A stretch of DNA of 64,000 nucleotides from an uncultured bacterium. Its GTDB lineage: Bacteria; Bacillota_I; Bacilli_A; RFN20; CAG-826. Positions 888 to 24,570 of this stretch are shown here, in pieces. Made by a program: the position numbers and the translations under genes. Each line of letters starts with the position of its first letter. Position 1 is the stretch's first letter. The notes under the pieces are model-generated. The model ran no database searches. It saw nothing but the letters and a program-made list of their open reading frames with translations, and was not told the origin of the DNA. Location: NCBI GenBank assembly GCA_949293255.1, contig CASFCL010000002.1, forward strand, positions 30,395 through 94,394, given 5' to 3'.

Positions 888-944
888 TTTGGTAAATTTT
901 TGAAATTGCGACAATCTTGTTAGTATAAGGAGGTAGTAATTTCA
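888..944 (+). repeat. Copy 1 of ~48-nt structured repeat (element A) with SD in loop
   Basis: About 40 of 47 nt identical to the reverse complement of 24523..24570. Stem TGAAATTGC(901-909)/GTAATTTCA(936-944), AAGGAGGT at 927-934. Confidence 0.75.
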
Positions 945-1058
945 TGATTTAAATTTTAAATTTTATTTAAAATTATCTTTTCATTAAAAACGCATTTTCT
1001 TGATGTAGTATTCTCTAATATCTAGTAAAATATTACCGGCTAAAAAGGGGCGTATAAA

Positions 1059-2474
1059 ATGAAATTTGATGTAGCAATTGTTGGTGCCGGACCATGTGGT
1101 TATTTCTGTGCTTATGAATTAATAAATAAAAATCCAAATTTAAAAATTGCCTTAATTGACAGAGGCTTGGATATTAACAAAAGAAACTGTCCTGTTTTAA
1201 AACACACAATCGATAAATGTCCTGTTGGAAAATCTGGAAGACAAGAATGTTTTCCTGCTTGTTCTATCACTAATGGATTTGGTGGAGCAGGTGCATATAG
1301 TGACGGAAAATTCAATATAACTACCGAGTTTGGAGGATGGCTTGCAAATTATACTGGCGACGAAAAATTAATGGAATTAATCGATTATGCCGATAAAATT
1401 AACTTACATTTTGGTGCTACAGAAGTTATCACCGACCCAACTACCCCTAAAGTTAGAGAAATCGAACATAGAGCAATGTCTTATGGTGTTAAACTTTTAA
1501 GAAGTAAAGTTAGACATTTAGGAACTGAAGAAAACTTTAAAATTTTAAAGAAAATATATGATTATTTAGATACAAAAATCACTATGTTTTTCCAAAAGGA
1601 AGTAAACGATATTATCGTTAAAAACGGAAAAATATGTGGTTTAGAGTTTACTAATTCCGCTGACATTGAAGCTGATCATGTTGTTTTAGCTGTTGGAAGA
1701 GAAGGAAGCAAATGGCTTAATAACGTCTTTGAAAAACGCGGAATTAAAATGTCACAAAACCAAGTTGATATTGGTGTAAGAGTTGAAACCTCTAATTTAG
1801 TTATGGAAGAAATTAATAAAAACTTATATGAAGGTAAATTCTTATATAGAACATCATTTGGCACTACTGTTAGAACATTCTGCTCAAATCCATCAGGTCA
1901 TGTTGTTGTTGAAAACTATGAAGGTGTCGTTAATGTAAATGGACACTCTTATAACGATTCAAAATTAGGAAGTGAGAATACTAATTTTGCTCTTTTAGTT
2001 TCGCACCATTTTGAGGAACCATTTAATAAACCAAATGAATATGCATTAAAAGTTTCTTCGCTTGCCAATCAATTAGCTTGTGGAGGAGTTATTGTTCAAA
2101 GATTTGGAGATATTCTTGCTGGAAGAAGATCAACACCAAAAAGAATCAGAGAAAGTTTTATTAAACCAACTTTAAAAGAGGCTATCCCAGGAGATTTAAC
2201 TCTTGCTTTACCTCACAAAACAATGGCTTCTATTATTGAAATGATTAAGGTTTTAGATAAGATCACTCCAGGTCTTGCAACCGAACATACATTACTTTAT
2301 GGTGTTGAAGCTAAATACTATTCTGCACATCCTGAAACCACTAAACAACTTGAAGTTTCATCTATTAAAAATCTTTATGTTGGAGGAGATGGAGCAGGTA
2401 TCACAAGAGGCTTAGCTCAAGCTGGAGCATGTGGGATTTATATCGCAAGAAATATTATTGATTCTTTAAAATAA
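1059..2474 (+). CDS. NAD(P)/FAD-dependent oxidoreductase (COG2509-like, function unknown)
   Basis: N-terminal GAGPCG Rossmann motif, GFGGAGAYSDGK, C-terminal GDGAGITRGL. Confidence 0.85.
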   Translation: MKFDVAIVGAGPCGYFCAYELINKNPNLKIALIDRGLDINKRNCPVLKHTIDKCPVGKSGRQECFPACSITNGFGGAGAYSDGKFNITTEFGGWLANYTGDEKLMELIDYADKINLHFGATEVITDPTTPKVREIEHRAMSYGVKLLRSKVRHLGTEENFKILKKIYDYLDTKITMFFQKEVNDIIVKNGKICGLEFTNSADIEADHVVLAVGREGSKWLNNVFEKRGIKMSQNQVDIGVRVETSNLVMEEINKNLYEGKFLYRTSFGTTVRTFCSNPSGHVVVENYEGVVNVNGHSYNDSKLGSENTNFALLVSHHFEEPFNKPNEYALKVSSLANQLACGGVIVQRFGDILAGRRSTPKRIRESFIKPTLKEAIPGDLTLALPHKTMASIIEMIKVLDKITPGLATEHTLLYGVEAKYYSAHPETTKQLEVSSIKNLYVGGDGAGITRGLAQAGACGIYIARNIIDSLK

Positions 2475-2486
2475 GGAGGGTTTAGC

Positions 2487-3761
2487 ATGATTTATGTCAT
2501 CGAAGGAACACAATGGGGTGACGAAGGTAAAGGTAAAATTACTGATTATCTTGGTCAAAAAATGGATATTATAGTTAGACACCAAGGAGGTAATAACGCT
2601 GGTCACACTATTGTTATTGGCGAAGATAAATTTGCTTTATCAGCTCTCCCAAGTGGAATCGTAAATCCAAATATTACAAACGTTATCGCAAGCGGAGTTG
2701 TCCTTAATATTTCTCAACTTATTAGAGAACTTACAATGGTTAAGGAAAAGGGATTACCTTTTAAATTATTAATCTCAAATAGAGCACATATTATCATGCC
2801 TTATCATGTTGATCTTGATGGAGCTTATGAAGGATTGCTTTCAAAACACAAAATTGGAACAACAAAAAAAGGAATTGGTCCATGTTATCAAGATAAAGCT
2901 GCTCGTAGGGGCATCAGAGTTGGCGATTTATTAGAACCTTCTTACTTAAAAGAAAGACTTGCAAGCTGTCTTTTAATCAAAAATATGGAATTAAAATTAT
3001 TTGGAAAAGAAATCTATGATTTTAATTCTTTATATAAAAAGTTAATTCAATATGGTGAACTTTTAAAACCATATATTACTGATACTTCTAAATTTTTAAA
3101 TAAAGCAATTAAAGAAAATAAAAATATTTTATTTGAAGGTGCTCAAGGAAGTATGCTTTGTTTAAATTATGGAACTTATCCATATGTTACTTCTTCTTCA
3201 CCACTTGCAAACTCTGTACCATTAAACGCAGGTATTCCACCAAAATCAATTGATAAAGTAATCGGAATTATGAAAGCTTATACAACTAGAGTTGGTGAAG
3301 GTCCTTTTGTTACAGAATTACACGATAAAACTGCTAATCTTATTAGAACTAGAGGTCATGAATACGGAACTGTTACTAGAAGACCAAGAAGAGTTGGTTA
3401 TTTAGATTTAATGGTTGTTAAACACACCGTTGAACTTTCAGGTATGGATTCAGTAGCAATTATGTTACTCGATGTTTTAACAGGGGTAAAAGACTTAAAT
3501 GTTTGTGTTGGTTATAAATTAGATGGGCAAGAAATTGATTACATTCCTTCTACTATTAAAGAATTAGAAAGAGTTGTTCCAATTTATCGTTCGTTCCCAT
3601 CATGGCATGAAGATATTACTAAAGTTAGAAATTACGATGATCTTCCAAAAGAAGCCAAAGAATATATTGAATTTATTGAATCGTTCTTAGGTGTTCCGGC
3701 TTGTTTGATTTCAGTTGGACCAGAAAGAAACGACACAATTATTAAACACGATTTGTTTTAA
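2487..3761 (+). CDS. purA: Adenylosuccinate synthetase
   Basis: QWGDEGKGK, GGNNAGHT, EGAQG, GTYPYVTSS, TTRVGEGPF; SD GGAGG upstream. Confidence 0.97.
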   Translation: MIYVIEGTQWGDEGKGKITDYLGQKMDIIVRHQGGNNAGHTIVIGEDKFALSALPSGIVNPNITNVIASGVVLNISQLIRELTMVKEKGLPFKLLISNRAHIIMPYHVDLDGAYEGLLSKHKIGTTKKGIGPCYQDKAARRGIRVGDLLEPSYLKERLASCLLIKNMELKLFGKEIYDFNSLYKKLIQYGELLKPYITDTSKFLNKAIKENKNILFEGAQGSMLCLNYGTYPYVTSSSPLANSVPLNAGIPPKSIDKVIGIMKAYTTRVGEGPFVTELHDKTANLIRTRGHEYGTVTRRPRRVGYLDLMVVKHTVELSGMDSVAIMLLDVLTGVKDLNVCVGYKLDGQEIDYIPSTIKELERVVPIYRSFPSWHEDITKVRNYDDLPKEAKEYIEFIESFLGVPACLISVGPERNDTIIKHDLF

Positions 3762-3774
3762 TTAGGAGCATCTT

Positions 3775-5067
3775 ATGATTGATAGATATACAACAAAAGA
3801 AATGAGCAAAATATTCTCTTTAAAGAATAAATTTTCAAAATATTTATTAGTTGAAAAAGAAGTTTGCCACTATCTCTATAAAAATAATGTAATTTCTGAA
3901 GATGTGTATCTAAAAATTTTAAAAGATGCTAAATTTGACCTAAAAGGAATTCAAGAATTAGAAAAAGAAACAAAGCATGATGTTATCGCTTTTACAAGAA
4001 ACGTTTCTTCGTATTTAGGCGAAGAGAAAAAATGGATTCATTATGGATTAACCTCTACTGATGTTGTTGATACTGCTTCTGCTGTTATATATAAAGAAGC
4101 TAACAAAGTATTAATGAAAAGAATGCTTGAATTTAAAGATGCTTTAAAAGAAAAAGCCTTAGCTTATAAATACACTCCTTGTATTGGAAGAACACATGGA
4201 ATCCATGCTGATATTACATCATTTGGTTTAAAGTGGTGTTTATATTTTGATGAATTTAATAGGGATTTTGCAAGGTTTTTGATTGCAAAAGCTGAAATTG
4301 AGACCGGAAAGATTTCTGGTGCTGTCGGAACTTTTTCTCTTTTACCATCAAATTGCCAAGACTTTGTTTGTACTTGTTTAGGCATTAACTCTTCAAATAT
4401 TTCTACTCAAGTTTTACAAAGAGATCGTCATTCATTTTACTCTTCATGCATAACAGTTTTTGGTTCTTTACTTGAAAAAATTGCCCTCGAAATTAGAAAC
4501 CTTCAACGCACAGAAGTTCATGAAGTTGAAGAATATTTTTCTAAAAATCAAAAAGGTAGTTCAGCAATGCCACATAAGCATAATCCAATCGGAAGCGAAA
4601 ATATTTGTGGATGTGCAAGAATGTTAAGAGGATATAATGTTGCAATTTTAGAAGATAATGCACTATTTCATGAAAGAGATATTTCACATTCATCCGTTGA
4701 ACGTATCGCTTTAGCTGATTCAATTATCTTATTTGATTACATGCTTCAAAGAATGACATCAATTATTAAAAATTTAAATGTATATCCTGAAAATATGCTT
4801 AAAAACATTTCATTAACAAACAATGTTATTTATTCTCAATACGTAATGACAAGGTTGATTGAAAAAGGTTTTTCTAGAGAAAACGCATACGATCTTATCC
4901 AACCAATGGCCGTAAAAGCATACGAAGAAAACATAGACTTTTTTGACTTATTAAGAAAAAATCCTACTGTTTTGTCGGCTATTTCTATAGATGAATTAGA
5001 TAATTTTAAAGATTCAACATTCAAAAAACTTGATATTGATACTATTTATAAAAGAGTCGGTCTTTAA
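3775..5067 (+). CDS. purB: Adenylosuccinate lyase
   Basis: MIDRY, GLTSTDVVDT, GRTHG, GSSAMPHKHNP, HERDISHSSVER. Confidence 0.97.
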   Translation: MIDRYTTKEMSKIFSLKNKFSKYLLVEKEVCHYLYKNNVISEDVYLKILKDAKFDLKGIQELEKETKHDVIAFTRNVSSYLGEEKKWIHYGLTSTDVVDTASAVIYKEANKVLMKRMLEFKDALKEKALAYKYTPCIGRTHGIHADITSFGLKWCLYFDEFNRDFARFLIAKAEIETGKISGAVGTFSLLPSNCQDFVCTCLGINSSNISTQVLQRDRHSFYSSCITVFGSLLEKIALEIRNLQRTEVHEVEEYFSKNQKGSSAMPHKHNPIGSENICGCARMLRGYNVAILEDNALFHERDISHSSVERIALADSIILFDYMLQRMTSIIKNLNVYPENMLKNISLTNNVIYSQYVMTRLIEKGFSRENAYDLIQPMAVKAYEENIDFFDLLRKNPTVLSAISIDELDNFKDSTFKKLDIDTIYKRVGL

Positions 5068-6336
5068 TTAATTTGGAAGCGGATAATTCTTTAATAAATT
5101 AATAATTTCTTTTTTAATTTTTTCTAATAATTTTTCGTCATCTTTGTTGCTTAATACTTTATCAATATATTCAGCAACTTTTATAAATTCAGCTTCTTTA
5201 AACCCTCTAGTTGTCATGGCAGGAGTTCCTAATCTAATACCACTACAATAAGTTGGTTTTTCTTGATCGCCTGGAATTGAGTTTTTATTACAAGTAATAT
5301 TAACTTTTTCTAATAAAGTTTGTGCTTCTAATCCGGTTACGCCGTATTTTTCTTTAACATTAACTAATAAAAGATGGTTATCAGTTCCGCCACTAATTAC
5401 AGGACATCCTAATTCAATTAATTTATTTGCTAATGCTTTAGCGTTTTTACATACATTTTCTATATAAATTTTGTATTCTGGTTGTAAATCTTCATAAAAA
5501 GCTACTGCTTTCGCAGCAATTACATGCATTAAGGGTCCGCCTTGGCATCCTGGGAATACTTCTCTATTAATCTTTTTAATTAATTCTTCATCGTTAGTTA
5601 AAATGAGTCCACCTCGTGGTCCTCTAAGTGTTTTATGTGTAGTTGAAGTAACTACATGTGCATAAGAAACTGGATTTTGATGATAACCTGTGCAACAAAG
5701 TCCAGCAATATGAGCCATATCAACAAGTAAATATGCTCCGATTTCATCGGCAATTTTTCTAAATTCTTCAAAATCAATATTTCTAGGATAAGCACTTGCG
5801 CCTGCAATAATAAGATTTGGTTTTACTTCATGACAAATTTTTCTAACTTCATCATAATTAATAGTTCCGTTACTAACATCTACTCCATAGGTATAAGCTT
5901 CATAATCTTTTCCAGAAAAAGAAAGTTTATAACCGTGGGTTAAATGTCCTCCACTATCTAAAGACATTCCTAAAATTTTGTCACCTTTATTAATTAGTGC
6001 TCTTATTGCAGCCATATTAGCTTGAGATCCAGAATGGGGTTGTACATTTGCAAATTTTGCACCAAAAAGTTTTTTAGCTCTTTCGATTGCTAAAGTTTCA
6101 ACAACATCAACATATTCGCAACCGCCATAATAACGGTTTCCAGGGTAGCCTTCTGCATATTTGTTTGTTAAGACACTACCTTGAGCTTCCCTTACAGCCA
6201 TCGAAACAAAATTCTCGCTGGCAATAAGTTCGATGTTCTCGTTTTGCCTTCTTTCTTCTTTGGCTATTGCATCAAATAATTCTGAATCTGTTATTTTTAT
6301 ACTTTTTTTGTTTATCATAAGTCTAGATATAATCAT
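5068..6336 (-). CDS. glyA: Serine hydroxymethyltransferase (start may be ATG at 6318)
   Basis: [45 protein letters not shown]. Confidence 0.97.
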
Positions 6337-6430
6337 ATAACATTCTTAAGATTCTTTAAATTAAAAATTCTCTATTTTGTGTAATTGTTTTTGACTTTTA
6401 ATTTTCCTCAAAAACCTATAAATTTTTTGC

Positions 6431-6457
6431 AAAAACCTTGCAAAAACCAAATATTTT
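6431..6457 (+). repeat. Dispersed motif B (AAAAACCTTGCA-AAAACC-AAATATTTT), intergenic copy
   Basis: Matches copies at 13032, 34981, 39647, 44234 and in several CDS. TTGCAAAAACC is tandemly duplicated here (6427-6448). Confidence 0.7.
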
Positions 6458-6488
6458 TACAAATTTTTATAGATTTGAATAAAAATAA

Positions 6489-6508
6489 TAAATAGTATAT
6501 ACTATTTA
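6489..6508. promoter_or_regulatory. Perfect 20-bp palindrome over a TATACT -10 box, putative operator
   Basis: TAAATAGTATATACTATTTA, 21 nt before the ATG at 6530. Confidence 0.55.
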
Positions 6509-6529
6509 AGCAAATTTTGAGGTAACGAA

Positions 6530-7579
6530 ATGAGTAAAAGTAATGTTGTAAAAAAAGCAAACGTAGTAAAGCAAAAAAAGAAATTCCCATGGGGAAAAAT
6601 TTTCTATTATTTAAAAACTTTAATTAGTAACGAAAGAGTCGTTGATGTCGGGTTCCATACAAAATGGTATTGGTCCATCTTAGTAATGATCATCTCAATT
6701 GGTCTTTCAATAATTCCATTAGCAGTTAATACTGCTTCACAAAGAGGATCAAACTATCTTCAATATTCAACTCAATCAAACGTTTATTGGGATGAACCTT
6801 TTAGATATGGTTTACAAAAATTTGTTGAAGAAGGAACTGCTGATATTACATTCAATACCGAGACTAACAAAGCTTCTATCACTGGAACATTTGAAGGCAA
6901 TACTGTTTATGCATATAGAAGAACTATAAACGATGGTTCGGCAACCACTTCAAAACTAACATTAGAAATTTGTTATGCTTCTGAAGATTCATATGCCGCT
7001 ACATTAGAAAACTTACGTTCTTACGATATTGATGGAAACGCACGTTCTTCTTCATTTATTCTTTTTGGAGAAACAACTTTTGTTTCTTACGCTTATTCAA
7101 CCGGAACAACAACCTCTTCATCAATTTCTGGAAATTATAAAAATATGAGACAATTAGTTGGCGAAGGAACCACTACAATTTCATTAAAGTCATTCCTTTC
7201 TCAAGTTGATACCGGATCTTCAGTTACTTCCGATTCAATTTTTAATAATTATAAAACATTAGTTGACAACTTCTACATTGACAATTGTAATTACTTAACA
7301 GGTGTTTACATTGGAATTATTATTGCAGTCAATGTTGCTGTTGTCTTAATCATGTGGTTAGTCTTCTTCATTATGACAAGAGGAAAGAACAACCCATTAA
7401 AACCTTGGAAGTTCTATCACTTCTTTGGTGTTGCTTCATGGGCATCAATTACTCCAGCACTTTTATCATTAATCTTAGGATTTATGATGGCTGGTTACGA
7501 AATAATCTTATTTGTCTTAATTTATGGTTTCAGAGCTATGTGGTTAAGCATGAGACAATTAAGACCAGTTGTTCAATAA
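6530..7579 (+). CDS. Integral membrane protein of unknown function
   Basis: One N-terminal and three C-terminal hydrophobic segments around a Ser/Thr-rich extracellular region; SD GAGG. Confidence 0.8.
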   Translation: MSKSNVVKKANVVKQKKKFPWGKIFYYLKTLISNERVVDVGFHTKWYWSILVMIISIGLSIIPLAVNTASQRGSNYLQYSTQSNVYWDEPFRYGLQKFVEEGTADITFNTETNKASITGTFEGNTVYAYRRTINDGSATTSKLTLEICYASEDSYAATLENLRSYDIDGNARSSSFILFGETTFVSYAYSTGTTTSSSISGNYKNMRQLVGEGTTTISLKSFLSQVDTGSSVTSDSIFNNYKTLVDNFYIDNCNYLTGVYIGIIIAVNVAVVLIMWLVFFIMTRGKNNPLKPWKFYHFFGVASWASITPALLSLILGFMMAGYEIILFVLIYGFRAMWLSMRQLRPVVQ

Positions 7580-7592
7580 TTCAATTTAAATA

Positions 7593-7934
7593 TTAATCTT
7601 TCCAATCACTATCAGGATTTGATTTATTATCAATTGATAATTTTAATAGTCCTAAAATATCATCAATTTCTCTATAAATATATCCCTCTTTATAAACTAC
7701 AGGATTTTCATAATCAGCAGTAAAAATAACATGCTTATTTCTTTTTGTTGAATCAATAATTTCATCTACAATAAGTTCAAACTTACTTTCAAAATGATCT
7801 TTTATATATTCTAATTGCGTATAAAAATTAGGTTCAATATAACAATCACAATCTTCAATTTCAAAATGATCAATGTGTTTATAATCTTTGTCAGTTTTTA
7901 TAACTAATCCTTTATTAATAAATAAATCTTTCAT
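7593..7934 (-). CDS. Hypothetical acidic protein downstream of rlmH
   Basis: 113-aa ORF with SD AAGGAG; codon usage like its neighbours. Confidence 0.75.
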   Translation of the reverse strand: MKDLFINKGLVIKTDKDYKHIDHFEIEDCDCYIEPNFYTQLEYIKDHFESKFELIVDEIIDSTKRNKHVIFTADYENPVVYKEGYIYREIDDILGLLKLSIDNKSNPDSDWKD

Positions 7935-7948
7935 ATGATAACTCCTTT

Positions 7949-8419
7949 TTAATGATGATATGCTTCTTTATTTATAATTTTAAAAGCTCTATATATTTGT
8001 TCTACTAATATTAACCTTGCCATTTGATGTGGAAAAGTCATTTTACTAAAGCAAATTCTTGAATTTGCTCTTTTAATAACTTTTTCCGAAAATCCAAGAC
8101 TTCCACCTATCGCAATATTTATTGGAGAGCGACCTAAATCTATTAAATTTGATAAATTTTGAGAAAATTCTTCAGAAGTGTATTCTTTACCGTGCAAATC
8201 CATCAAAACTAAATAGTCATTTTGTTTTATTTTTTGAAGTAAGTCTTCTCCTTCTTTATCTTTAGTTGTTTTTTCGCCTAATCCTTGGATTTTTTGGTCT
8301 TTGATTTCAATTATTTTAATCTCGCAAAATTTTGAAAGTCTTTTAATATATTCATCAATTCCATCCTTAAAAAACTTTTCTTTTATTGAGCCAACAGCAA
8401 AAATATTTATTTTAATCAT
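7949..8419 (-). CDS. rlmH: 23S rRNA m3Psi1915 methyltransferase
   Basis: IGGSLG, SKMTFPHQMARLILVEQIYRAFKI...YHH. Confidence 0.95.
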   Translation of the reverse strand: MIKINIFAVGSIKEKFFKDGIDEYIKRLSKFCEIKIIEIKDQKIQGLGEKTTKDKEGEDLLQKIKQNDYLVLMDLHGKEYTSEEFSQNLSNLIDLGRSPINIAIGGSLGFSEKVIKRANSRICFSKMTFPHQMARLILVEQIYRAFKIINKEAYHH

Positions 8420-10312: not shown

Positions 10313-10313
10313 A

Positions 10314-12344
10314 TTATTCTTCTCCTTTCACATCTTGTACGTTTTGCGCTTCAGTTAAATAGTCGTCTAAAACTTCTTTTAGTTGTTCTTCAGCTTGTCT
10401 GATACTTACATTTTTTAAAAGTGTTGCAGCTGATGAGAAATGTCCGCCACCGTTCATTTTTTCAACAAGGACTTGAACATTAATTGATCCATCGCTTCTT
10501 GCAGAAATTCTGACATCGTTTTCACCAGTTCTACCGATGACAAATGCTGCATGAATGTCTTTTAATTGCATACATTGATTTGCAACTTTTGCAAGCAATG
10601 TTCTTTCAACAACGTCATCATCATCACAACAACAATAAACAACTCCATAATAAGGCGTTTTCATTGTTCCAATAACTTTATTAATAAGTTTGTATTCTTC
10701 AAAATCATCTTTTAACATTTCATCAGCTTTACCGTTATCAGCTCCAAAATCTTTTAAAACCATACAAGCTTCAAATGTTCTATAACTTGTAGTTTTTGAT
10801 TTTAAGAATGTTGTATCTAAGAAAATTCCAGCAAGCATAAATGTTGCAATTGTTTGATTAATCTTAAAGTCTTTTGGCTTTTTGGTCATGTATCTTATAA
10901 ATTCAGCAACAATTTCACTAGCTGACGAGGCACCAGTTTCAACATATTGTAAAACAGGGCTTTCAATAAAGTCTTCACTTCTTCTATGATGATCAATAAC
11001 AACAACCTTTTTGGTTCTTTCTAAAAGATCAGGGCACATTGTAAGTCTAGGTCTAGAAACATCGACTACAATTAATAAAGTTGAGTTTTTAACTTTTTCA
11101 AGAGAGTCTCTATTAGAAACAAAAATTTCTGAATATTCTTCTTTTGAGAAAGTTCCTTTCATTGCTGTTCTTGTTTTCTTTTCAATATTTCTATCATCAA
11201 CAACAATATTTGCAGAAATTCCACATCCACGAACAATTCCATAAACACCTAAAGCTGCTCCAAGAGCATCCATATCCATATCGGTATGTCCCATAATAAG
11301 AACGTTTCCTGCTCTTTCAATTAAATTAACAAGAGAATCTGCTGTTTGACGGACGTGAACACGATTTCTTTTTGAAATTGATTCAGTTTTTCCACCAAAG
11401 AAAGCTAATTCATAACCATATTTATTAACAACTGCTTGGTCACCACCTCTAGACATCGCAATATCGACTGCATTTGATGCCATTTCATATAACTTATTAA
11501 CATCTGGGAACATGTGACCAATACCAATTGATAGGGTAGGTTGAACTTGATCATCTTTTGTGATTTGTTTTACTTTTTCAAGTAATGAGAATCCATCATT
11601 CTCTACTTCTGCTAAATCTTCATAAGTACAAACGCAAATGTAAGAGTCGTTTTTGAAGTTTTTCAAAAGCATTTTATGTTCTTTAGCGTATTGGATGATT
11701 TCGTTTTTAACTTTTGCGATTGTGTCACTAATATCATCATCATTACCACCGATATCTTGATAGTTATCAATTGTAATAATACCAACACAAGTTGCTTGAC
11801 CTTCACATTGTTTTCTCCACTTTTCACTAGTGGTAATATCTAAAAATACGAATACTCCGGCAGTTCTTAGATATTTAACATTGTAGGTATTATCTCCAAT
11901 ATTAACTGTTAATTCATATCCACCTTCACTTTTTGTGAAGTTATCAAACATTTTGTTCCATTCAAATATGTTTTGATTAACAATATCGATTCCTCTTGAA
12001 TATAAGAAATTTGATTGCCATAAGACAACTCCTTCTTTATCAACAGTAACCATGCCCATTTGGGCAAAGTTGTATGCTTCTTCAACATCGTTTCCTAAAA
12101 CTTGCTTTGTTCTTAAATCACCCTTTTTTCTTAAAGCTGAAACAGAATAAAGCATTGAGAATAAAAAGATGTTATCGATAAAAATTAAAACCAAAAATCC
12201 ATAAGCAAAATATTCTGGCTTTACTAAGTCATAAAGATCCCAAATATTAAGTAAATAGATGGTAATAAAAACTCCAACTACCACTATTTGGAAAAGAGAG
12301 ACGAATAATGTAACTAATTTATATTGATTAATTTTCTTGTTCAT
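10314..12344 (-). CDS. gdpP: c-di-AMP phosphodiesterase (TM-PAS-degenerate GGDEF-DHH-DHHA1)
   Basis: Two N-terminal TM segments, RGGDQAV, GHTDMDMDALG, IDHHR, GGGH; canonical gdpP-rplI-dnaB order. Confidence 0.93.
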   Translation of the reverse strand: MNKKINQYKLVTLFVSLFQIVVVGVFITIYLLNIWDLYDLVKPEYFAYGFLVLIFIDNIFLFSMLYSVSALRKKGDLRTKQVLGNDVEEAYNFAQMGMVTVDKEGVVLWQSNFLYSRGIDIVNQNIFEWNKMFDNFTKSEGGYELTVNIGDNTYNVKYLRTAGVFVFLDITTSEKWRKQCEGQATCVGIITIDNYQDIGGNDDDISDTIAKVKNEIIQYAKEHKMLLKNFKNDSYICVCTYEDLAEVENDGFSLLEKVKQITKDDQVQPTLSIGIGHMFPDVNKLYEMASNAVDIAMSRGGDQAVVNKYGYELAFFGGKTESISKRNRVHVRQTADSLVNLIERAGNVLIMGHTDMDMDALGAALGVYGIVRGCGISANIVVDDRNIEKKTRTAMKGTFSKEEYSEIFVSNRDSLEKVKNSTLLIVVDVSRPRLTMCPDLLERTKKVVVIDHHRRSEDFIESPVLQYVETGASSASEIVAEFIRYMTKKPKDFKINQTIATFMLAGIFLDTTFLKSKTTSYRTFEACMVLKDFGADNGKADEMLKDDFEEYKLINKVIGTMKTPYYGVVYCCCDDDDVVERTLLAKVANQCMQLKDIHAAFVIGRTGENDVRISARSDGSINVQVLVEKMNGGGHFSSAATLLKNVSIRQAEEQLKEVLDDYLTEAQNVQDVKGEE

Positions 12345-12354
12345 AAAATTTCAC

Positions 12355-12378
12355 TTTTTCTATTATACAATAGAAAAA
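12355..12378 (-). promoter_or_regulatory. gdpP promoter -10 (TGTATAAT) inside a 10-bp inverted repeat
   Basis: TTTTTCTATT-N4-AATAGAAAAA; TATAAT at 12367-12362. Confidence 0.55.
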
Positions 12379-12405
12379 ACTTAAAGTGTTAAAAAAACAG
12401 AAAAA

Positions 12406-13031: not shown

Positions 13032-13058
13032 AAAAACCTTGCATTTTTTAACTATTTT
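13032..13058 (+). repeat. Dispersed motif B, intergenic copy
   Basis: AAAAACCTTGCA-N6-AACTATTTT, same spacing as 39647 and 6431. Confidence 0.65.
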
Positions 13059-13249
13059 GGCCTTTTTTTGCTAATTTTTAACTAATTTTACTCACTAAAA
13101 AACTACTAATTTTTAATTACAAAAATTTAACTTTTATTTTTATAAAAAAGTCTTTATATTTTTAAGGCCTAAAGGAAAACAACATACTAAGTCGTTAAAA
13201 ACGGAAAGTAGTTTCATATTTTAGACGCCCACTTAAAAAGGAGAACGTT

Positions 13250-15631: not shown

Positions 15632-15636
15632 ATCTT

Positions 15637-16560: not shown

Positions 16561-16561
16561 C

Positions 16562-16587
16562 AAAATGGTCGAAAGACCATTTTTTTT
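16562..16587. terminator. Bidirectional intrinsic terminator between trxB and the DUF1848 gene
   Basis: AAAATGGTC-GAAA-GACCATTTT plus T-run. Confidence 0.85.
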
Positions 16588-17476: not shown

Positions 17477-20400
17477 TTCTTTAAATCTATTTTTCCTTGA
17501 TTTGTGGTGAAATCTTTATAAAAAGCAAGGATGTAATCAATCATTTCTTTAATTTTTATTGAACTTTGTAAAGAAATTGAGCTCGCACCAAAAGCATAAC
17601 CGACTGATTTAATCATATCTTCTAAAGTTATTTCTCTTTGAAGTTTTAAAATTTCAATCATTGCATTTTTAACTTCAACAATTGGAAGTTGTTCTAAAGA
17701 TCTTTGATAAATAGATGACGTTCTATAATAATCCATAGTGTCTAAATTTATTGATAAAGGATAATAAAAATACCCATTAATTTCTGCAACTTTTTTACTT
17801 TTTACATATCTAAGTTGAATATTAAATAGTCTTTTAACTTTTGGACCAACTCTTTCAAGTCCGAAGAAGTCTTTAAATCTTTGAAGTAAGAGATTTTCTG
17901 AAATTGGACCTTCATAATTAATTACGTTTTCTAAACTTGTAACTAATTCAGGGTACATTCTTTCAACTTGATAGTTCTCATAATTGAACGAATTGAAAAC
18001 TTTATATTTTAAATAATCTTTCTTTCTATGAGATTCATTGGTTTCTGCTTTTTCAAAATTGACATCATCTACTTCAATTTCATCAACGTTATTATCTAAA
18101 TTTTCTAAATTCTCTAAAGCTTTTAAGATATCTTTTATGACTTGATCCTTGTTTTTAAAGTAATCAATTGTAAAAATACGAATTATTTTCCATTTTAATC
18201 TAGTTAAAATTAAAGAATGAACATAGTTTCTATCTCTACATGTAGGGGTGCTTAAATATGTATCACTATCACAAATAATACCTAAAATATACTTTCCTTC
18301 ACTGTTTTTGATACATAAATCAATTTTAAATTTAGAATCTCCGACATTAATATCAGATTCAATTCCTAATTTTGCTAAATCCTCTTTAATGAAATTTTGT
18401 ACACCAATTTCGCTAATAATTTGATTCTTATTTTCTATTTCTAAAGACTCTAATCCTTGTTCAGCATATAAAAGGAATGATTTTAAAACTGCTGCTCCTT
18501 TATTTTTAACTCTTCTTGCATCAATATCTGAAGATTTAATTGAAGAATAAATTATCATTTCTTTTCTAGCTCTAGTTATTGCAACATTTAATCTTCTTTC
18601 ACCTTTATCTAAAGAAAGTGGGCCAAAATTATGTAAAAATTTGCCTTCAGGATTATAACCAAAACCAACAGAGAAAATAATTACATCTCTTTCATCACCT
18701 TGAACGTTTTCTAAATTCTTAATAAATAAAGGATCTTCTTCATTATTAATTAATTCTAAATATTTTGGATTATCCATTACTTCTTTTTGTAATTCTTTAT
18801 AAACAAATTCTTGTTGTTTGATGTTAAAACAAACTATACCGATGCTTTGTTTACTTAAAATTGGGTCATCTAATCTATGAATAATTTCTTTAACAATTGC
18901 TTTAGCTTCAACTTTATTAATTCCTGATTCATAAACACCATCTTTTAAATAATTAAAGGAAACTTTTGATAATTTATTATCAGGAGATGGGAAAGTATAA
19001 AGATTATGATCATAGAAATAATTATTTGAGAAAGCAATTAATGACTCATGAGCAGATCTATAGTGCCATAAAAGTCTATTTCTCTTCATTTTTAAAGTTA
19101 TACAATCATCTAAAAGCGACTCTAAATCTTCATAAACAATGCTTTCATCATATTCATCCAACGATGTAATGTTTGCTTTAAAGAAATTTGTTGGTGGCAT
19201 TTGTTGAGGATCACCTGCAACTATTAAGCTGTTTCCTCTAGAAATTGCACCAATTGCTTCACATGTAGGAATTTGACTTGCTTCATCAAAAATAACGATA
19301 TCGAACTTTTTAGTATCAAGACTTAAATATTGAGCAGCTGATAAAGGAGACATGAAGAAGCAAGGACAGAATGTTCTAATTAAATCTTCATAATCTTCTA
19401 AAATTCCTCTAATAGTTTGTCCTCTTCCACCATTTTTAATTAATTTTCTTAAACTATAAATTTTACTTGATTCAGCATATCTAACATTAGAGACTGGGAA
19501 GTCTTGAGTTAAAATGTTTGCGGTTTTTTCGATAACAAGAGTTGAAAAATTACTAAGTAGCTCATCATATTTTTTAATTGCTTCATTAAAGAGGATGCCA
19601 TTGAATTCATTATAATAAGGATCTTTAAAATAATTGTTTAATATGACTTTATAAACAGAAACTAAAAATCTATTTTTTAGTTCTTCTACACTAAATATAC
19701 CAACTCTATATTTTTGAATTATGTATTTATAAAGACCTAAATCTTCTAGTTCCTTAAGCACACGATTAAAAATAATAAGGTTATAGATTTCGTTCTTTTC
19801 GTCTAATGCCTTATTGAGTGAAGCAATGCATGACCCCATATATGAGGAATCTATTTCGTCAAAATCAGTTAAGAAAACGAAATCATATTTGTTTGAAAAT
19901 TCCGCCTCATAATCTCGAACTTTAGATATTTCTTGAATCATTATTTCAATATTATTTTTGACATTTTCCCCGTCTTTTAAATCAAAAATCTCGCAGAACC
20001 TTAATTTATTTTCTAAAACCTCGTTTTCTGGCATGTCTTTTAAAAGAAGGTCTACCTTATTTAATAAATCTAATCCATTGTCAAATCTAACCAAAAGATT
20101 TTTAAAATTAACTTCAGTTAAATCTTCTGAAATTCTTTCAAATTGTTCTATATATTGAGTTTTTAAGTTTATAGATTGTTCTTCTTCTTTTATTAAATTT
20201 AATAAGAAAAGATACTTTTCAATCTCTTTATTTGTTAACTTATGTTCTTTAATTTCTAAATATGCTTTAAGTTCTCTTTTGATATTGTGCTTAGCAAAAA
20301 ATTTAGTAAAAACATTTCCAGATTTAAGAGTTTCGATAACTTCTTTAATATAATCTTCGTCAATATTTAAAACAGATTTTTTAAATGTTTTAAATAAATA

Positions 20401-23262
20401 AGCGTAGTCTTCACTTAATTTAACGCCTTGGATGATAGTTTCTTTAATTGTTTCATAGTTTCTAACAAAATCTTGTTCAAAAATGTTATTAAGAACACAT
20501 TTATTTTGCATCAAAATTTCTAATATTTTGTTAAAAAACATTACGTTTTTGCGGGTCTTTTTAAAAGTAAAGTTAAATTCACCAAGAAAACTAGTTAAAC
20601 GAATATAATAATTTATCAACGCATCTCTTAAATCAGTAACCAAAGAGAAAAACTTATCATTAATCTTTGTATTATCCAAAATTAGGAGTCCCCTATATGG
20701 ATTTTCACAAAGTTTACCTCTTTGAGATTCTATTTCTTTTAATGTATTTAATCCGTCTACTATTTCTTTTATCCTTTTGTCGTCAAGATGAAGGGCTGCA
20801 AAATAATTGTCACTTTCTTTAAAATCAAACTCTCTTAATTCTTCATATCTTAATACTGCATCGTGTAAAGAATAGATGTACTTCCTCTCTGTAGTTTTGT
20901 TAATAAGTTGATTTAAATATTTCTTTTTTTCTTCTAAATCATTTAAATGGTCATCAAATTCTTTTGGAGAGACAATTCTTTCTAATTCCATAGATTGCTC
21001 AATTTGATTTAAGAAGTCTCTTTTATTTGATTTGCTCGAATGAAGTTCTAAACAGAAGTTACCTAAATGGATTTCATCAATTCTTTTTTTAACAACTTCA
21101 AGAGCAACCATTTTTTCAGCAACAAATAAGACTGATTTTTTGTTATAAAGTGCATTAACAATCATGTTGACGATGGTTTGAGATTTTCCGGTTCCTGGAG
21201 GACCATCTAAAACAAAACTTTCACCTTTTCCACAATCTAAAATAGCTTTTACTTGGGATGAATCAGCACCTAAAGGTATTGCAACATCATCAATTTGAAT
21301 ATTTTTATCGATATCTTTTAAATCAGTATCTTCTTCACTATTTCTATATGGTTTTCCTTCAACAAGACATTTAATAATGTCGTTTTTTAATAGTTCTTCT
21401 TTTCTATTAGAAATATCGTTCCAAATAATATAATTAGCAAAATATAAAATTGATAAATAACATTTATCGTCTTCTACTGTTATTTCACAATCTTCTGATG
21501 ATTTTGATCTAATAAGATTAATAATTGTGTTGTAATCTCTTTCTAAATTTTCTTTATTAACTGAATAAATTTCGTCTAAAGAGATGAGGAAATTTTGTTT
21601 AAGATACTCAAAAAGTGTCGTATTTATCGTAATTGCATCAAAGTTTAAATCTAATTCATAACTGTTATTTGAACCTTTAACTTTAGAAAAAGCTGGTACT
21701 AAAAATAAAGGTGCATAAAAATCTCTTTTACTTCCTCGAGGAGTAAATCTTACAAGACCTAAACTTAAATAAAGAGCGTTCGAACCGGTTTCTTCTACTA
21801 TTCCAACCGCTTTTCTACATAAGCTTCTATAATCATCAACTGATCCAGTAATTGCAAATTTGCCGTTTCTTTCATATTCACGGATTTCAATTAATGAAAC
21901 TTTTTGAATATCGTCGAGATTATTATCAATTTTTGTTGGTACAACTTTTAATTTTTCACTATTAGTAATACTTTCAATAAAGGTTCTTATTGTGCTAATA
22001 AAGATATATGGAGATTTTGAATTAAACTTAAAATTAATTAATCTATTTCTTAAAGAAAGGTCTAATAATTTCCTGCTCCAATAGAAAAACTTATCGTTTT
22101 CCTGCTTCTTTGAGGTAAAAATTACCCCATTATCCGCTGTTGACTTAACTTCAAAATCAACATCGTGCATGATAGGAAAATCGATTATTTCTTCATTTTG
22201 ATCGTTATATTTTATTTCTGGTATTGGTCGATAAATATATTGATGACATTTAAAAATATCAATTGCTTCAAAATATCCATGATAATTTCTTAAATGATTT
22301 CTTGCGGCTTCGTTTGCACCTCTAAATGTTGCCTCTTCCTTATCGTTTGTTAAAAGTGTGCATTCAACTAATTCTATTTGAGTGTTATTGTATGCTGATA
22401 AGTTATAAATATAAGAAGGTGACTCTAAAAAGTACGATTCAAACGTATTTTCACTTAAAAAGCATCCCGCAAAAGCATGACCTTCTTTAATAATCAAAAT
22501 TGGTCTTAATCCAACTGATTCTAAACAAGAACAATATAAAATTGCTAAATCTAAACAAGTTCCTTTTCCATTTATAACGACGTCTTTAGGAAGTCTAACT
22601 TTTTGAAATTCATTAAATGAGGCGGGCGGTAAAACATAAGAGATACCTTTTCTTTTAATAGCTTTAAAAATTGCCATCATTTCTTCTCTAACACTATCAA
22701 TATCGTTAGAAAGATATCCATAAAAAGCAGTTTCTTTGTTTCTTATTCCTTTTAATTCATAAAAAGCACTGTTGATAATTTTTCCAACAATATCATTATT
22801 TGGAGTAACAAATGAACTTAAAATACAAACATCTTCTTTTATTGAAGAAATTTCATTTATTGGGTTTAAAGTGAATAAAATTTGTTCGCTTAAAAGTTCT
22901 TCATAAGTTTTTTCGTTATATAGTTTTACAGTTATATTTACTGGAACTTCTTCGGTTAATTTATATAATTCTTTAACATTTAAATTTATTTTTATTCCTT
23001 CAGAAATATATGTTGTCGATCTTTTAAAAATTGAGGCAATATTTATGTTTTCAATTTGAATAATATCGTTATTGCTTTCAAAAGAAATTACACAATTAGA
23101 ATAATCATCATCTGATTCATTTGTAATAATTATTTTCTCAATTAAAGAATATGGAGTTGTTTTGATTGTTGAGTTTTTTTGCTTATAAAAACAATCAGTT
23201 TGATAATAAACGTAGTTATATTCTTTTCGGTGTATGAATTCTAATTTGATCCCTTTCTCCAT
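17473..23262 (-). CDS. Giant DUF4011 / SF1 helicase / Vsr-like nuclease / DUF3320 protein (Hhe-like) with N-terminal transglutaminase-like domain
   Basis: GTCLD...GHAFAG, WSRKLLDLSLRNRLINF, GPPGTGKSQT, DEASQ, WHYRS, NLENVQGDERD, RRLNVAITRA. Start moved to ATG 23262 (6 nt after TGCTATAAT). Confidence 0.88.
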   Translation of the reverse strand: MEKGIKLEFIHRKEYNYVYYQTDCFYKQKNSTIKTTPYSLIEKIIITNESDDDYSNCVISFESNNDIIQIENINIASIFKRSTTYISEGIKINLNVKELYKLTEEVPVNITVKLYNEKTYEELLSEQILFTLNPINEISSIKEDVCILSSFVTPNNDIVGKIINSAFYELKGIRNKETAFYGYLSNDIDSVREEMMAIFKAIKRKGISYVLPPASFNEFQKVRLPKDVVINGKGTCLDLAILYCSCLESVGLRPILIIKEGHAFAGCFLSENTFESYFLESPSYIYNLSAYNNTQIELVECTLLTNDKEEATFRGANEAARNHLRNYHGYFEAIDIFKCHQYIYRPIPEIKYNDQNEEIIDFPIMHDVDFEVKSTADNGVIFTSKKQENDKFFYWSRKLLDLSLRNRLINFKFNSKSPYIFISTIRTFIESITNSEKLKVVPTKIDNNLDDIQKVSLIEIREYERNGKFAITGSVDDYRSLCRKAVGIVEETGSNALYLSLGLVRFTPRGSKRDFYAPLFLVPAFSKVKGSNNSYELDLNFDAITINTTLFEYLKQNFLISLDEIYSVNKENLERDYNTIINLIRSKSSEDCEITVEDDKCYLSILYFANYIIWNDISNRKEELLKNDIIKCLVEGKPYRNSEEDTDLKDIDKNIQIDDVAIPLGADSSQVKAILDCGKGESFVLDGPPGTGKSQTIVNMIVNALYNKKSVLFVAEKMVALEVVKKRIDEIHLGNFCLELHSSKSNKRDFLNQIEQSMELERIVSPKEFDDHLNDLEEKKKYLNQLINKTTERKYIYSLHDAVLRYEELREFDFKESDNYFAALHLDDKRIKEIVDGLNTLKEIESQRGKLCENPYRGLLILDNTKINDKFFSLVTDLRDALINYYIRLTSFLGEFNFTFKKTRKNVMFFNKILEILMQNKCVLNNIFEQDFVRNYETIKETIIQGVKLSEDYAYLFKTFKKSVLNIDEDYIKEVIETLKSGNVFTKFFAKHNIKRELKAYLEIKEHKLTNKEIEKYLFLLNLIKEEEQSINLKTQYIEQFERISEDLTEVNFKNLLVRFDNGLDLLNKVDLLLKDMPENEVLENKLRFCEIFDLKDGENVKNNIEIMIQEISKVRDYEAEFSNKYDFVFLTDFDEIDSSYMGSCIASLNKALDEKNEIYNLIIFNRVLKELEDLGLYKYIIQKYRVGIFSVEELKNRFLVSVYKVILNNYFKDPYYNEFNGILFNEAIKKYDELLSNFSTLVIEKTANILTQDFPVSNVRYAESSKIYSLRKLIKNGGRGQTIRGILEDYEDLIRTFCPCFFMSPLSAAQYLSLDTKKFDIVIFDEASQIPTCEAIGAISRGNSLIVAGDPQQMPPTNFFKANITSLDEYDESIVYEDLESLLDDCITLKMKRNRLLWHYRSAHESLIAFSNNYFYDHNLYTFPSPDNKLSKVSFNYLKDGVYESGINKVEAKAIVKEIIHRLDDPILSKQSIGIVCFNIKQQEFVYKELQKEVMDNPKYLELINNEEDPLFIKNLENVQGDERDVIIFSVGFGYNPEGKFLHNFGPLSLDKGERRLNVAITRARKEMIIYSSIKSSDIDARRVKNKGAAVLKSFLLYAEQGLESLEIENKNQIISEIGVQNFIKEDLAKLGIESDINVGDSKFKIDLCIKNSEGKYILGIICDSDTYLSTPTCRDRNYVHSLILTRLKWKIIRIFTIDYFKNKDQVIKDILKALENLENLDNNVDEIEVDDVNFEKAETNESHRKKDYLKYKVFNSFNYENYQVERMYPELVTSLENVINYEGPISENLLLQRFKDFFGLERVGPKVKRLFNIQLRYVKSKKVAEINGYFYYPLSINLDTMDYYRTSSIYQRSLEQLPIVEVKNAMIEILKLQREITLEDMIKSVGYAFGASSISLQSSIKIKEMIDYILAFYKDFTTNQGKIDLKK

Positions 23263-23373
23263 AAAAAAATTATAGCACAAGTGTATTTTCTATTATTACA
23301 CATTTTATATTAAATTTTTATAAAAATTTTAATTTTATCCACGATTAGCGCGTTTTTTTGGGACATAAAAAAT

Positions 23374-23398
23374 AAAAAAAGCCCTAATTTCTTAGGAC
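23374..23398 (-). terminator. Intrinsic terminator after rpsR
   Basis: GTCCTAA-GAAA-TTAGGGC followed by T7 on the minus strand. Confidence 0.8.
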
Positions 23399-23418
23399 CT
23401 TATACACTTCTATTTCAA

Positions 23419-23646
23419 TTAGTCAGCGATATATGGTAATAAAGCCATGTATCTTGCTCTTTTAATTGCTCTAGCAAGTTCTCTTTGATATTTAGCACTT
23501 GTTCCGGTTAATCTACGTGGTGAGATTCTTCCGCTTGGAGTGATAAATTTCTTTAAAGTTTCTACATCTTTATAATCAATATATTTGATTTTATTTTTTG
23601 TAAAGTAGCAAACTTTTTTTCTAGCTCTTTTCTTAATAAATGCCAT
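23419..23646 (-). CDS. rpsR: 30S ribosomal protein S18
   Basis: KKVCYF...IDYKD...[11 protein letters not shown]...[13 protein letters not shown]. Confidence 0.98.
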
Positions 23647-23665
23647 CTTTAAGTCTCCTTATAAA

Positions 23666-24097
23666 TTAGAATGGAAGATCGTCGTCAGCTACATCATTTC
23701 CAAGGACATCATCGATTGAAGCATCATCATCCATTGTTGAATCAGTTAATGATACGCTGTCACTTGTTGTGTTGGTATTTGACTTAGCGCTTCCAGTAAG
23801 TTGAATGTTGTCAGCAACAATTTCAATTGTGCTAACATTTGTGCCGTCTTGTCTTTGGTATTTGTTTTCTTGTAATCTTCCTTCAAGAACAAGTTGACTA
23901 CCCTTTTTACCATAATTGCAAATATACTCAGCAGTCTTATTAAATACAGAAACTCTTACAAAGTTGCTTTTATTGTTTTCTTTTGAATAAGATGAATCAA
24001 AAGCAACACTTAATGTAGTAACAGCAGTTCCTGTAGATGTTCTTCTTAATTCTGGATCACGAGCTAAACGACCTAATAAAACAACACGATTAATCAT
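23666..24097 (-). CDS. ssb: Single-stranded DNA-binding protein
   Basis: MINRVVLLGRLARDPELR; C-terminal DDDLPF. Confidence 0.97.
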   Translation of the reverse strand: MINRVVLLGRLARDPELRRTSTGTAVTTLSVAFDSSYSKENNKSNFVRVSVFNKTAEYICNYGKKGSQLVLEGRLQENKYQRQDGTNVSTIEIVADNIQLTGSAKSNTNTTSDSVSLTDSTMDDDASIDDVLGNDVADDDLPF

Positions 24098-24113
24098 AAA
24101 TTTTTCCTCCCAA

Positions 24114-24404
24114 TTAATCTTGATCGACAGTAATTAAATATCTTAATACATTGCTATCGATTTTACTGAGACGGTCAAATTCTTTAGTTTCATCTGCACT
24201 GTCGCATTCAATCTTTAAAATGACGTAATATCCTTTTGGTTGTTTTTTGATAGGATATGCAAGATCTTTTACACCCCATTCAGTAACCTTTGTAATTTTG
24301 GTTCCTGCTTTGGTAAGGTGTCCATGGAGTTTATCCATTTCTGCTTTTCTTGCGGCGTCATCAAGGTCTGCTTTTAAGATGTACATAATTTCGTACTTTT
24401 TCAT
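24114..24404 (-). CDS. rpsF: 30S ribosomal protein S6
   Basis: MKKYEIMYIL...WGVKDLAYPIKK..GYY...VLRYL. Confidence 0.98.
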   Translation of the reverse strand: MKKYEIMYILKADLDDAARKAEMDKLHGHLTKAGTKITKVTEWGVKDLAYPIKKQPKGYYVILKIECDSADETKEFDRLSKIDSNVLRYLITVDQD

Positions 24405-24477
24405 ACCTTTACCTCCCTTTGGACAATCTGCCCCAACTTAAGCCACCGTTGAGGAGAGAAGAGCACAAATTTGTGCT
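24405..24477 (-). promoter_or_regulatory. rpsF leader (S6:S18 autoregulatory RNA-like)
   Basis: Hairpin CTCCTCAAC...GTTGGGG then GTCCAAAGGGAGGT next to the SD, resembling Firmicutes rpsF leaders; 16-bp palindrome AGCACAAATTTGTGCT at 24462-24477. Confidence 0.6.
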
Positions 24478-24488
24478 GTAATATTTTA

Positions 24489-24570
24489 TCGAAATTCCCC
24501 ACTCTTTGTAAAGAATAATTTGACCTCCCCTTTACTAACAAGATTGCTGGAATTTCGAAAAATTACCAAA
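24489..24570 (-). repeat. Copy 2 of ~48-nt structured repeat (element A)
   Basis: Minus strand TTTGGTAATTTTTCGAAATTCCAGCAATCTTGTTAGTAAAGGGGAGGT; 10-bp stem TCGAAATTCC/GGAATTTCGA (24549-24558 with 24489-24498). Confidence 0.75.

Follow-up and report, generated by a model that had tools for sequence, protein, structure and literature searches.

A lineage-restricted small interspersed repeat, with a possible origin in a terminator, between operons of an uncultured gut Bacilli genome

STAB-SD (SD, Shine-Dalgarno), which stabilises the cry3A mRNA of Bacillus thuringiensis from the 5' side, must sit near the mature 5' end of the mRNA, and extended -10 (TGn) promoters, with the pattern TGnTAnnnT, occur in Gram-positive bacteria. 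Dispersed, short and lineage-specific intergenic repeats that can carry or disturb expression signals include REP/BIME, of which the REPs are GC-rich imperfect palindromes, and the MITEs (BOX, RUP and Correia), which have terminal inverted repeats, target-site duplications and a tight fold. In the pneumococcal repeat SPRITE, an 18-bp duplex is followed by a long U-rich tract, the terminal repeats are AAAA/TTTT, and copies are enriched between convergent genes (PMC3049150). Here, a repeat unit of ~57 nt is described that occurs twice in a 64,000-nt stretch of contig CASFCL010000002.1 (hereafter the window). The host belongs to an uncultured, 30% GC, small-genome Bacilli lineage that is found in bird/chicken gut and faecal metagenomes and is related to Candidatus Onthovivens. 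Copy 1 lies 125-170 nt upstream of a FAD-oxidoreductase/purA/purB operon and copy 2 lies upstream of rpsF-ssb-rpsR, with the next genes starting at 1059 and 24404, respectively. With moderate confidence, the unit is explained as a lineage-specific small interspersed repeat that would derive from a terminator or inter-operon spacer, and the purine tail of which would be reused as a ribosome-binding site (RBS) wherever a start codon follows.

In behaviour and position, the closest described systems are small interspersed repeats such as SPRITE (PMC3049150). Both are short and AT-rich, are present in tens of copies or fewer and are confined to one species and its nearest relative; both also lie near the 3' ends of coding sequences, have an A-run at the start and show an apparent link to terminators (PMC3049150). 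However, the present unit has no conserved duplex or U-tract, its neighbouring genes are co-directional, and the purine tract at its end can serve as an RBS; it has no sequence similarity to SPRITE.

The two copies in the window match at 40 of 47 positions (888-934(+) against 24570-24523(-), with one 1-nt gap), and 49 of 62 columns are identical when the alignment is extended to 875-934 and 24584-24523. Copy 1 overlaps the stop codon (TAA, 879-881) of a gene annotated as DUF5662 by Pfam, and copy 2 begins at or just after the stop codon of lysS (TAA, 24579-24577, minus strand). A first-pass annotation of the window, made from the sequence without database searches, had described a repeated element of ~48 nt that starts after stop codons, carries an exact CAATCTTGTTAGTA and ends in AAGGAGGT or GGGGAGGT, and this description was confirmed in full. 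The 14-mer CAATCTTGTTAGTA has no exact occurrence in the window beyond 912-925(+) and 24533-24546(-). The G+C content is 30% in the window and ~25% in the unit. With 46.8 bits the pair is the best repeat of the window, an equal or better top pair was obtained in 11 of 60 order-3 Markov simulations, and occurrences of the 14-mer with up to two mismatches in the window show no excess over chance. From the window alone, the repeat pair is not significant.

Data from outside the window were provided by Logan contigs of four metagenome runs that contain the same species (X1, X2, X3 and X5). Relative to single-copy flanks, summed contig depth in the four runs is 10-17x over 888-923 and ~10-15x over 24529-24584, and it returns to single copy by ~931 in copy 1 and by ~24528 in copy 2. 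As unitigs overlap by k-1, summed unitig depth overestimates copy number, and a firmer figure is given by the counts of distinct contigs. In each of these runs, 6-8 distinct contigs carry the unit, with 0-9 mismatches and unrelated flanks, and at least 7-8 loci per genome follow from these counts. A 38-nt unitig identical to 888-925 is present at 2.7x genome depth in X1, and thus copy 1 has identical twins. Assemblies break within the unit, as in Logan contig L145, which stops at window position 917. The two segments are therefore copies of a genuine multi-copy dispersed repeat. About 18 kb of further sequence from the same species (L145 and L148-L150) contains no additional copies. Copies 1 and 2 are inverted relative to each other and 23.6 kb apart, and an invertible segment was considered and rejected, as the alternative junctions are in no contig.

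The unit spans ~875-931 in copy 1. Its 5' part consists of an A-run and a T-run that overlap or directly follow the upstream stop codon, and the A/T-tract block (block 1, TTTGGTAAATTTTTGAAATT) has the consensus AAAWTAAAAA-TTTTTTGGTAAATTTTTGAAATT. Block 1 is followed by a variable linker of 3-4 nt (GCGA, CCAG, GCTG, GTTG or CAAG) and then by the core, with the family consensus GCA(A)TCTTGTTA and the variants TGGCATCTTGTTATATG and TTGGCATCTTGTTAAGTG at other loci. The distance from GAAATT to TCTTGTTA is always 7 nt. Between the core and AAGG there are 4-6 variable bases (GTAT, GTAA, TATG, AGTG or AGAA), and in the purine tail, AAGG(R)G, AAGG alone is constant; the remainder varies (GGAGG, GGGGG, GGCAG, GGATAT, GGAAAA and others), roughly half of the copies having a full GGAGG. 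A stop codon lies 0-6 nt from the start of the unit in copies 1 and 2, in the orthologous and the second copy of the closest relative, and in one copy from X5. It fills the slot from the stop codon to the next promoter or start codon, in the same orientation as the genes.

The closest relative is an uncultured Bacilli metagenome-assembled genome (L016) with 84% LysS identity, and it carries a diverged orthologous copy of the unit with both blocks (TTTGGGAATTTTCTTGAATTAATTGCATCTTGTTATTAAGGAG). In the L016 species the element has ~2-2.5x depth and a second copy is present on another, 13-kb contig, where it fills the whole gap from stop codon to ATG (GAATAA-TT-unit-AAGGAGTAA-ATGAGATTTAAATTATTAACTTTTCTAACA). 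No unit besides the L016 ortholog was found in 1.4 Mb of relatives' loci. The pattern GAAATT-N4-CAATCTTGTTAGTA has no match in 185,579 GTDB species genomes, among which the window species is thus not represented. Matches to TTTTNGAAATT-N6-ATCTTGTTA in JGI metagenomes were rejected as chance look-alikes, all 45 being without the flanking blocks. The repeat is restricted to one lineage, comprising the window species and the L016 species (2-3 copies). Because the closest relative has a diverged ortholog, copy 2 is old. Paralogs within the window species are 82-100% alike, whereas copy 2 and the L016 ortholog share about two thirds of their positions (by eye), which points to expansion or homogenisation within the lineage. 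The copy 1 locus is rearranged in relatives, and the gene order around oxidoreductase-purA-purB differs from that in all relatives examined. At the copy 2 locus, the closest relative already carries the element.

A true non-autonomous mobile element of the MITE/PATE type, moved in trans by a transposase encoded elsewhere, would share several of these features. The unit is a short, AT-rich intergenic sequence in many copies, some of them without a difference over 38 nt or more; compared with the closest relative, its numbers have grown in one lineage, and it is SPRITE-like in size, composition and position near gene 3' ends (PMC3049150). However, terminal inverted repeats were not found (the ends AAATTAAAAA... 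and ...AAGGAGG are not complementary), no flanking direct repeat that could be a target-site duplication is recognisable at copies 1 and 2, and neither locus shows presence/absence polymorphism in 5-6 samples. The copies are not randomly oriented but run with the genes, the position of the rpsF copy is ancient and shared with its ortholog, and a blastn search against plasmids and phages gave no match below E ~2. The likeness to REP/BIME and the MITEs is one of dispersed, short, lineage-specific intergenic repeats; the unit differs from REPs in having no palindrome (REP-type, GC-rich and imperfect, of 20-40 nt), and the terminal repeats, target-site duplications and tight fold of MITEs were not found in it. 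Such a mobile element is an improbable explanation. The scar of a mobile element was one of four hypotheses in the first-pass annotation, and it comes closest of the four in so far as the repeat is dispersed and may once have been mobile.

Evidence on the origin of the unit comes from the gap before rpsF. In most relatives, a canonical intrinsic terminator of the upstream gene is located directly before the rpsF promoter. The loop and 3' arm of these terminators read TCTTGTAT(A/T)nTGAAG(A/G), which is also the core of the window element (TCTTGTTAGTAAAGG). Intrinsic terminators called in this slot include GGCGTCTTGTATATTGAAGACGCT+TTTT in L039 and AAATGCGTCTTGTATTATGAAGGCGCATTT+TT in L023, and many other relatives are similar. 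The unit and the terminators thus have in common the slot from stop codon to -35, the core TCTTGT(A/T)T...AAG(R) and the small CUU/AAG closing pairs. However, the window and L016 are without the GC-rich stem and the U-tract, and the sequence is now multi-copy. No intrinsic terminator was called at either window copy or in L016, while ordinary terminators are used elsewhere in the genome, examples being those at 23401-23378 (after rpsR), 16562-16583 and 44092-44121. Upstream of rpsF, L017 and L035 have guaA or a fakA-like gene in place of lysS, so the motif stays with the gap before rpsF.

As copy 2 occupies the terminator slot of the relatives and shares its core, descent from a terminator can be inferred. 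Most likely, judging from these comparisons, an ancestral terminator or inter-operon spacer lost its GC stem and U-tract and was then multiplied; duplication or gene conversion may have spread it within the lineage. The present role would be that of a tolerated spacer that needs no RNA structure. At copies directly before a start codon, the purine tail would be the RBS; candidates are TAAGGGGGAAAATAATATGTTTACC in the window species and unit-AAGGAGTAA-ATGAGATTTAAATTATTAACTTTTCTAACA in the L016 species. At the two window copies, where each downstream operon has a promoter and an RBS of its own ~120 nt further on, the tail is left as an orphan.

A long form of sequence is also seen upstream of rpsF in some relatives. 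It consists of CCCCC(C), 21-23 nt, ACTTGTATA..AAGGAGG and then a conserved box, TAGGC(C), ~21-27 nt before the -35 (L017 4342-4400, L018 1632-1700, L026, L030, L035, L041 and L044), and it is terminator-like in appearance in L030 alone. That this long form is a structured RNA was rejected, as pairing between the C-run and the purine tail is not conserved among these seven loci.

The hypotheses of the first-pass annotation included an RNA device, acting as a STAB-SD-like processing site with a ribosome-loading stabiliser or as an SD decoy; in such a device, a transcribed covarying stem would expose or hide the SD. Long hairpins do form in silico at both window copies, with z-scores of about -3 against shuffled sequences, and the change from G to C between the 5' arms has its counterpart in the 3' arms. 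However, the 3' arms lie beyond the repeat unit, and that of copy 2 is the spacer of the rpsF promoter, TTTACA-N18-TAAAAT, abutting the -10 box. The L016 ortholog does not retain the stem and folds instead into a different structure (z -1.8), and for at least five other copies the 30 nt downstream contain nothing that could serve as a complementary arm. No conserved fold of the unit was found, the consensus fold having -1.26 kcal/mol. Since the 3' arms are copy-specific flanking sequence, the apparent covariation rests on two sequences with non-homologous arms, and the long stems made with these flanks are probably accidental. An Rfam scan of the whole window at the gathering threshold gave nothing relevant to the repeat, the sole match being a small bacterial signal recognition particle (SRP) RNA at 63125-63221(+) (RF00169, 61 bits), and permissive scans (E up to 10) of copy 2 and of a region of the relative L018 gave noise only. 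An origin as a fragment of the 16S rRNA 3' end was also considered and rejected; ACCTCCTTA and TAACAAG on the opposite strand resemble the end of 16S rRNA, but their order is wrong.

The SD-like tail had been said to lead to ATG-ATT-TAA at copy 1 and to no standard start codon at copy 2, and reading of the sequence agrees on both counts. A similar mini-ORF, ATG-ACT-TAA, is present with correct spacing after the tail of at least one other copy (from loose contig ends). A gene-less tail followed by a two-codon ORF at two copies might favour an RNA device; such ORFs may also be a chance product of AT-rich DNA. The SD itself did not hold up as a conserved feature: it is not conserved past AAGG, and among strains the tail of copy 2 is polymorphic, being either GGGGAGG or GGAGAGG (the latter in strain L006/X5).

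The position of the rpsF promoter bears further on a role in RNA. This promoter is located downstream of copy 2, and in ~50 relatives (C)TTTAC(A/T)-N17/18-TA(T/A)AAT is conserved in both position and sequence, as is the leader that follows. RNA data were available from one metatranscriptome with the L016 species, as assembled contigs, which show presence and not absence; a single metatranscriptome (X10) has almost no coverage of the window species. In the L016 species, an 845-nt RNA contig (11601 to 12445) covers rpsF-ssb-rpsR, and its start is 15 nt past the +1 predicted from TTTACA (11551) and TAAAAT (11574-11579). Over the L016 element there is no RNA contig among the assembled contigs of this metatranscriptome, at a depth of ~10. 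As the RNA contig begins past the downstream promoter, the main rpsF mRNA does not contain the element. This speaks against a STAB-SD-like role for copy 2 and also against a promoter within the element of strength comparable to the rpsF promoter. The unit is like STAB-SD in being SD-like, with no gene following, upstream of an operon. It differs in that the downstream promoter keeps copy 2 out of the main rpsF transcript, of which it thus could not be a 5' stabiliser, and in that the SD is not conserved among copies. An RNA device is accordingly very unlikely, and the stem and the unused RBS are most likely by-products.

The same slot and RNA data could be read in terms of a factor-dependent terminator or insulator, in which a protein bound to the blocks, or a pause signal, replaces the lost intrinsic terminator and stops read-through. 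Copy 2 directly follows a stop codon and shortly precedes the next promoter, where the relatives have a terminator, and lysS and the DUF5662 gene have no other called terminator. In several flanks a -35-like hexamer (TTTACA, TTTACC, TTGAAA or TTGCTA) is found 7-14 nt past the tail, and no RNA contig crosses the L016 element. However, both the termination and the factor would be hypothetical, the RNA coverage of lysS (one run) is too thin to show an end, and some copies are directly before a start codon inside apparent operons. Of the explanations considered, this one is given the least weight.

The rpsF leader, which is outside the repeat, is strongly conserved across ~50 related genomes (equivalent regions of L012-L095). 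Right at the predicted +1 lies a 5'-terminal hairpin (GCACAAATTTGTGC in the window), the arms of which show compensatory changes in relatives; an invariant UCUUCUCU tract is complementary to the SD AGGGAGG. A second hairpin co-varies by eye (CCTCAAC/GTTGGGG, GCTCTAAC/GATTAGAGC and GCTATATA/TATATAGC). From these sequence features, the leader looks like an autoregulatory leader of the S6:S18 type; it has no match in Rfam even at E up to 10.

Several observations weigh against descent from a terminator followed by spread as a tolerated spacer. With terminal inverted repeats, target duplications and empty sites all unseen, the mechanism of spreading is only proposed. Complete reads of the unit are limited to two copies, the others being known through match statistics and 30-nt flanks, and the consensus and the rule that units are always co-oriented and always after a stop codon rest on ~4-8 loci. 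Moreover, a repeat-like motif is present in a divergent gap before a thioredoxin-reductase-like gene in L014, L038, L045 and L065, which an origin in a terminator does not explain. Finally, the two sequence-conserved blocks at a fixed 7-nt spacing, the 45-nt core of copy 2 without single-nucleotide polymorphisms (SNPs) among ~10 strains and the greater similarity of paralogs than of orthologs would all fit a site recognised by a protein, in which case the unit would have a true function and not be a passive spacer.

In L014, the divergent-gap motif (~5040-5062(-)) reads AGTGAATATTTTT ... GCATTCTTGTATATAAAGGG, and its purine tail pairs with a downstream CCCTT, after which there is a T-run. In L038, the core of the motif is a perfect 14-bp palindrome, CTTGTATATACAAG.

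The strongest rival, although itself unlikely, is that the unit is cis-regulatory DNA, a promoter or regulator cassette that places ~10 transcription units in one regulon. In the promoter form, an A/T-tract UP-like block with TTGAAA would be followed by an extended -10 (TGT-TAGTAT), and primary 5' ends would be expected 6-8 nt past TAGTAT, or past TGGTAAATT; alternatively, both blocks would bind one regulator. Either form would account for the constant co-orientation of the unit with the downstream gene, for two conserved blocks with fixed spacing and a variable linker, for the SNP-free core and for the related motif in the divergent gap of L014-type genomes. A credible extended -10 is offered by TGnTAGTAT, which is present in copy 1 and in the twins identical to it; TGTTAGTAT of copy 1 fits the pattern TGnTAnnnT, and A/T tracts lie upstream. 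At copy f, a proper SD and ATG are at the right distance for a start ~7 nt past TAGTAT (TAGTATAAGGCAGTAAAAAGGAGGTGATAAAAATG), and CTTG-TAAAAT and TTG-TATAAT are real-looking -10 regions in relatives (L141 and the rpsF promoters). However, no two-hexamer site of the sigma-70 type was called in the unit, and TTGAAA is separated from the TAnnnn hexamer by 15 nt. This hexamer varies more than any other part of the unit (TAGTAT, TAGTAA, TATATG, TAAGTG and TAAGAA), and most copies, such as copy 2 with TAGTAA, lack the T at -7 of an extended -10. Canonical promoters exist in the genome, one of them downstream of copy 2, and none of the RNA contigs of the closest relative begins at the element, a depth of ~10 being too low to reveal a weak promoter. 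A start 7 nt past the hexamer would also cut off the tail at those copies where the tail is the RBS. PurR (PurBox), CodY box, sigma-54, ECF, SigH and TcdR-type motifs, compared by eye, were rejected, as none fits the conserved positions; the best comparison, 11/15 to the CodY box, is unremarkable in 30% GC DNA.

A combination of these views is also conceivable, in which the unit is a sequence-specific factor-recognition module that was derived from a terminator and then spread, serving as a roadblock terminator or insulator, or as a compact regulon signal. This is a speculative possibility, to which low probability is assigned. If true, a recognition module would have taken over from a lost hairpin terminator, or would co-ordinate ~10 units, including rpsF-ssb-rpsR and purA-purB, in a reduced genome.

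Other features of the window were noted as well. The 5' part of the element had been reported to recur at 35035, and TGGTAAATTTTTGAAATT is indeed exact at 35035-35052. Its surroundings are a divergent gap, flanked by the peptidyl-tRNA hydrolase gene pth (34344-34952, minus) on one side and by a TetR-family gene (35128-35727) on the other. Its membership in the repeat family is doubtful, since an exact AT-rich 18-mer is about the chance expectation in 64 kb at 30% GC by our estimate. The TetR-family gene has a good promoter (TTGACT-16-TATCAT, 35093-35130(+)) that ends 7 nt before the ATG, which suggests that its mRNA may be leaderless. At 6409-6473(+), in the divergent gap between 5068-6336(-) and 6530-7579(+), there are three copies of CAAAAACC (CAAAAACC-N13-CAAAAACC-TTG-CAAAAACC), with weaker look-alikes at 33456, 39645 and 59455 and, in reverse, at 4245, 29930, 44199 and 49511. 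The arrangement may be a regulator-binding array or a product of chance. Two tandem near-consensus promoters (TTGACT-17/18-TATAAT, 11/12 each) are found at 51675-51733(-) in the 605-nt gap between rpmH and dnaA, which probably also contains the replication origin. A 121-nt direct repeat with 70% identity (37029-37149 and 39142-39262) is located in adjacent ABC-transporter genes (35736-37553 and 37555-39648) and is likely to reflect gene paralogy rather than a separate element.

Table 1. Positions of the repeat copies, their parts and associated features in the window.
Feature	Position	Strand	Basis or remarks
Copy 1 of the repeat unit	875..931	+	Alignment to copy 2; contig depth
Copy 2 of the repeat unit	24527..24584	-	Alignment; depth; orthologous diverged copy in L016 at 11492-11535
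Block 1 (TTTGGTAAATTTTTGAAATT), A/T-tract block	888..907	+	Most highly repeated part of the unit; copy 2 equivalent 24570-24551
Conserved core CAATCTTGTTAGTA, copy 1	912..925	+	Exact in both copies
Conserved core CAATCTTGTTAGTA, copy 2	24533..24546	-	Exact match to copy 1
Purine tail AAGGAGGT, orphan SD-like, copy 1	927..934	+	Read directly
Purine tail GGGGAGGT, orphan SD-like, copy 2	24523..24530	-	Read directly
Two-codon mini-ORF ATG-ATT-TAA	944..952	+	9 nt past the SD-like tail of copy 1
Hairpin of the first-pass annotation, copy 1	901..944	+	Predicted; arms 901-909/936-944, inner pairs UCUUGU/AUAAGG; -13.6 kcal/mol, z -3.25
Hairpin of the first-pass annotation, copy 2	24489..24558	-	Predicted; arms 24558-24549/24498-24489; -18.1 kcal/mol, z -3.07
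Promoter of rpsF-ssb-rpsR	24483..24512	-	Predicted; TTTACA (24512-24507), 18-nt spacer, TAAAAT (24488-24483); 10/12 scan match
Conserved rpsF leader	24405..24476	-	5'-terminal hairpin GCACAAATTTGTGC, UCUUCUCU tract, variable hairpin; outside the repeat
Solitary block 1 look-alike	35027..35052	+	TGGTAAATTTTTGAAATT, exact 18-mer at 35035-35052

If descent from a terminator or spacer is correct, the unit would be one more family of small interspersed repeats. It breaks short-read assemblies of the species, and it may mislead annotation through orphan RBSs, mini-ORFs and apparent hairpins. Comparison with the relatives suggests how a terminator present once could plausibly have become a spacer in many copies, with its tail reused as an RBS. 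The finding would carry greater weight should the two blocks turn out to form a recognition site, as this would mean hairpin-free termination or a regulon in a regulator-poor genome.

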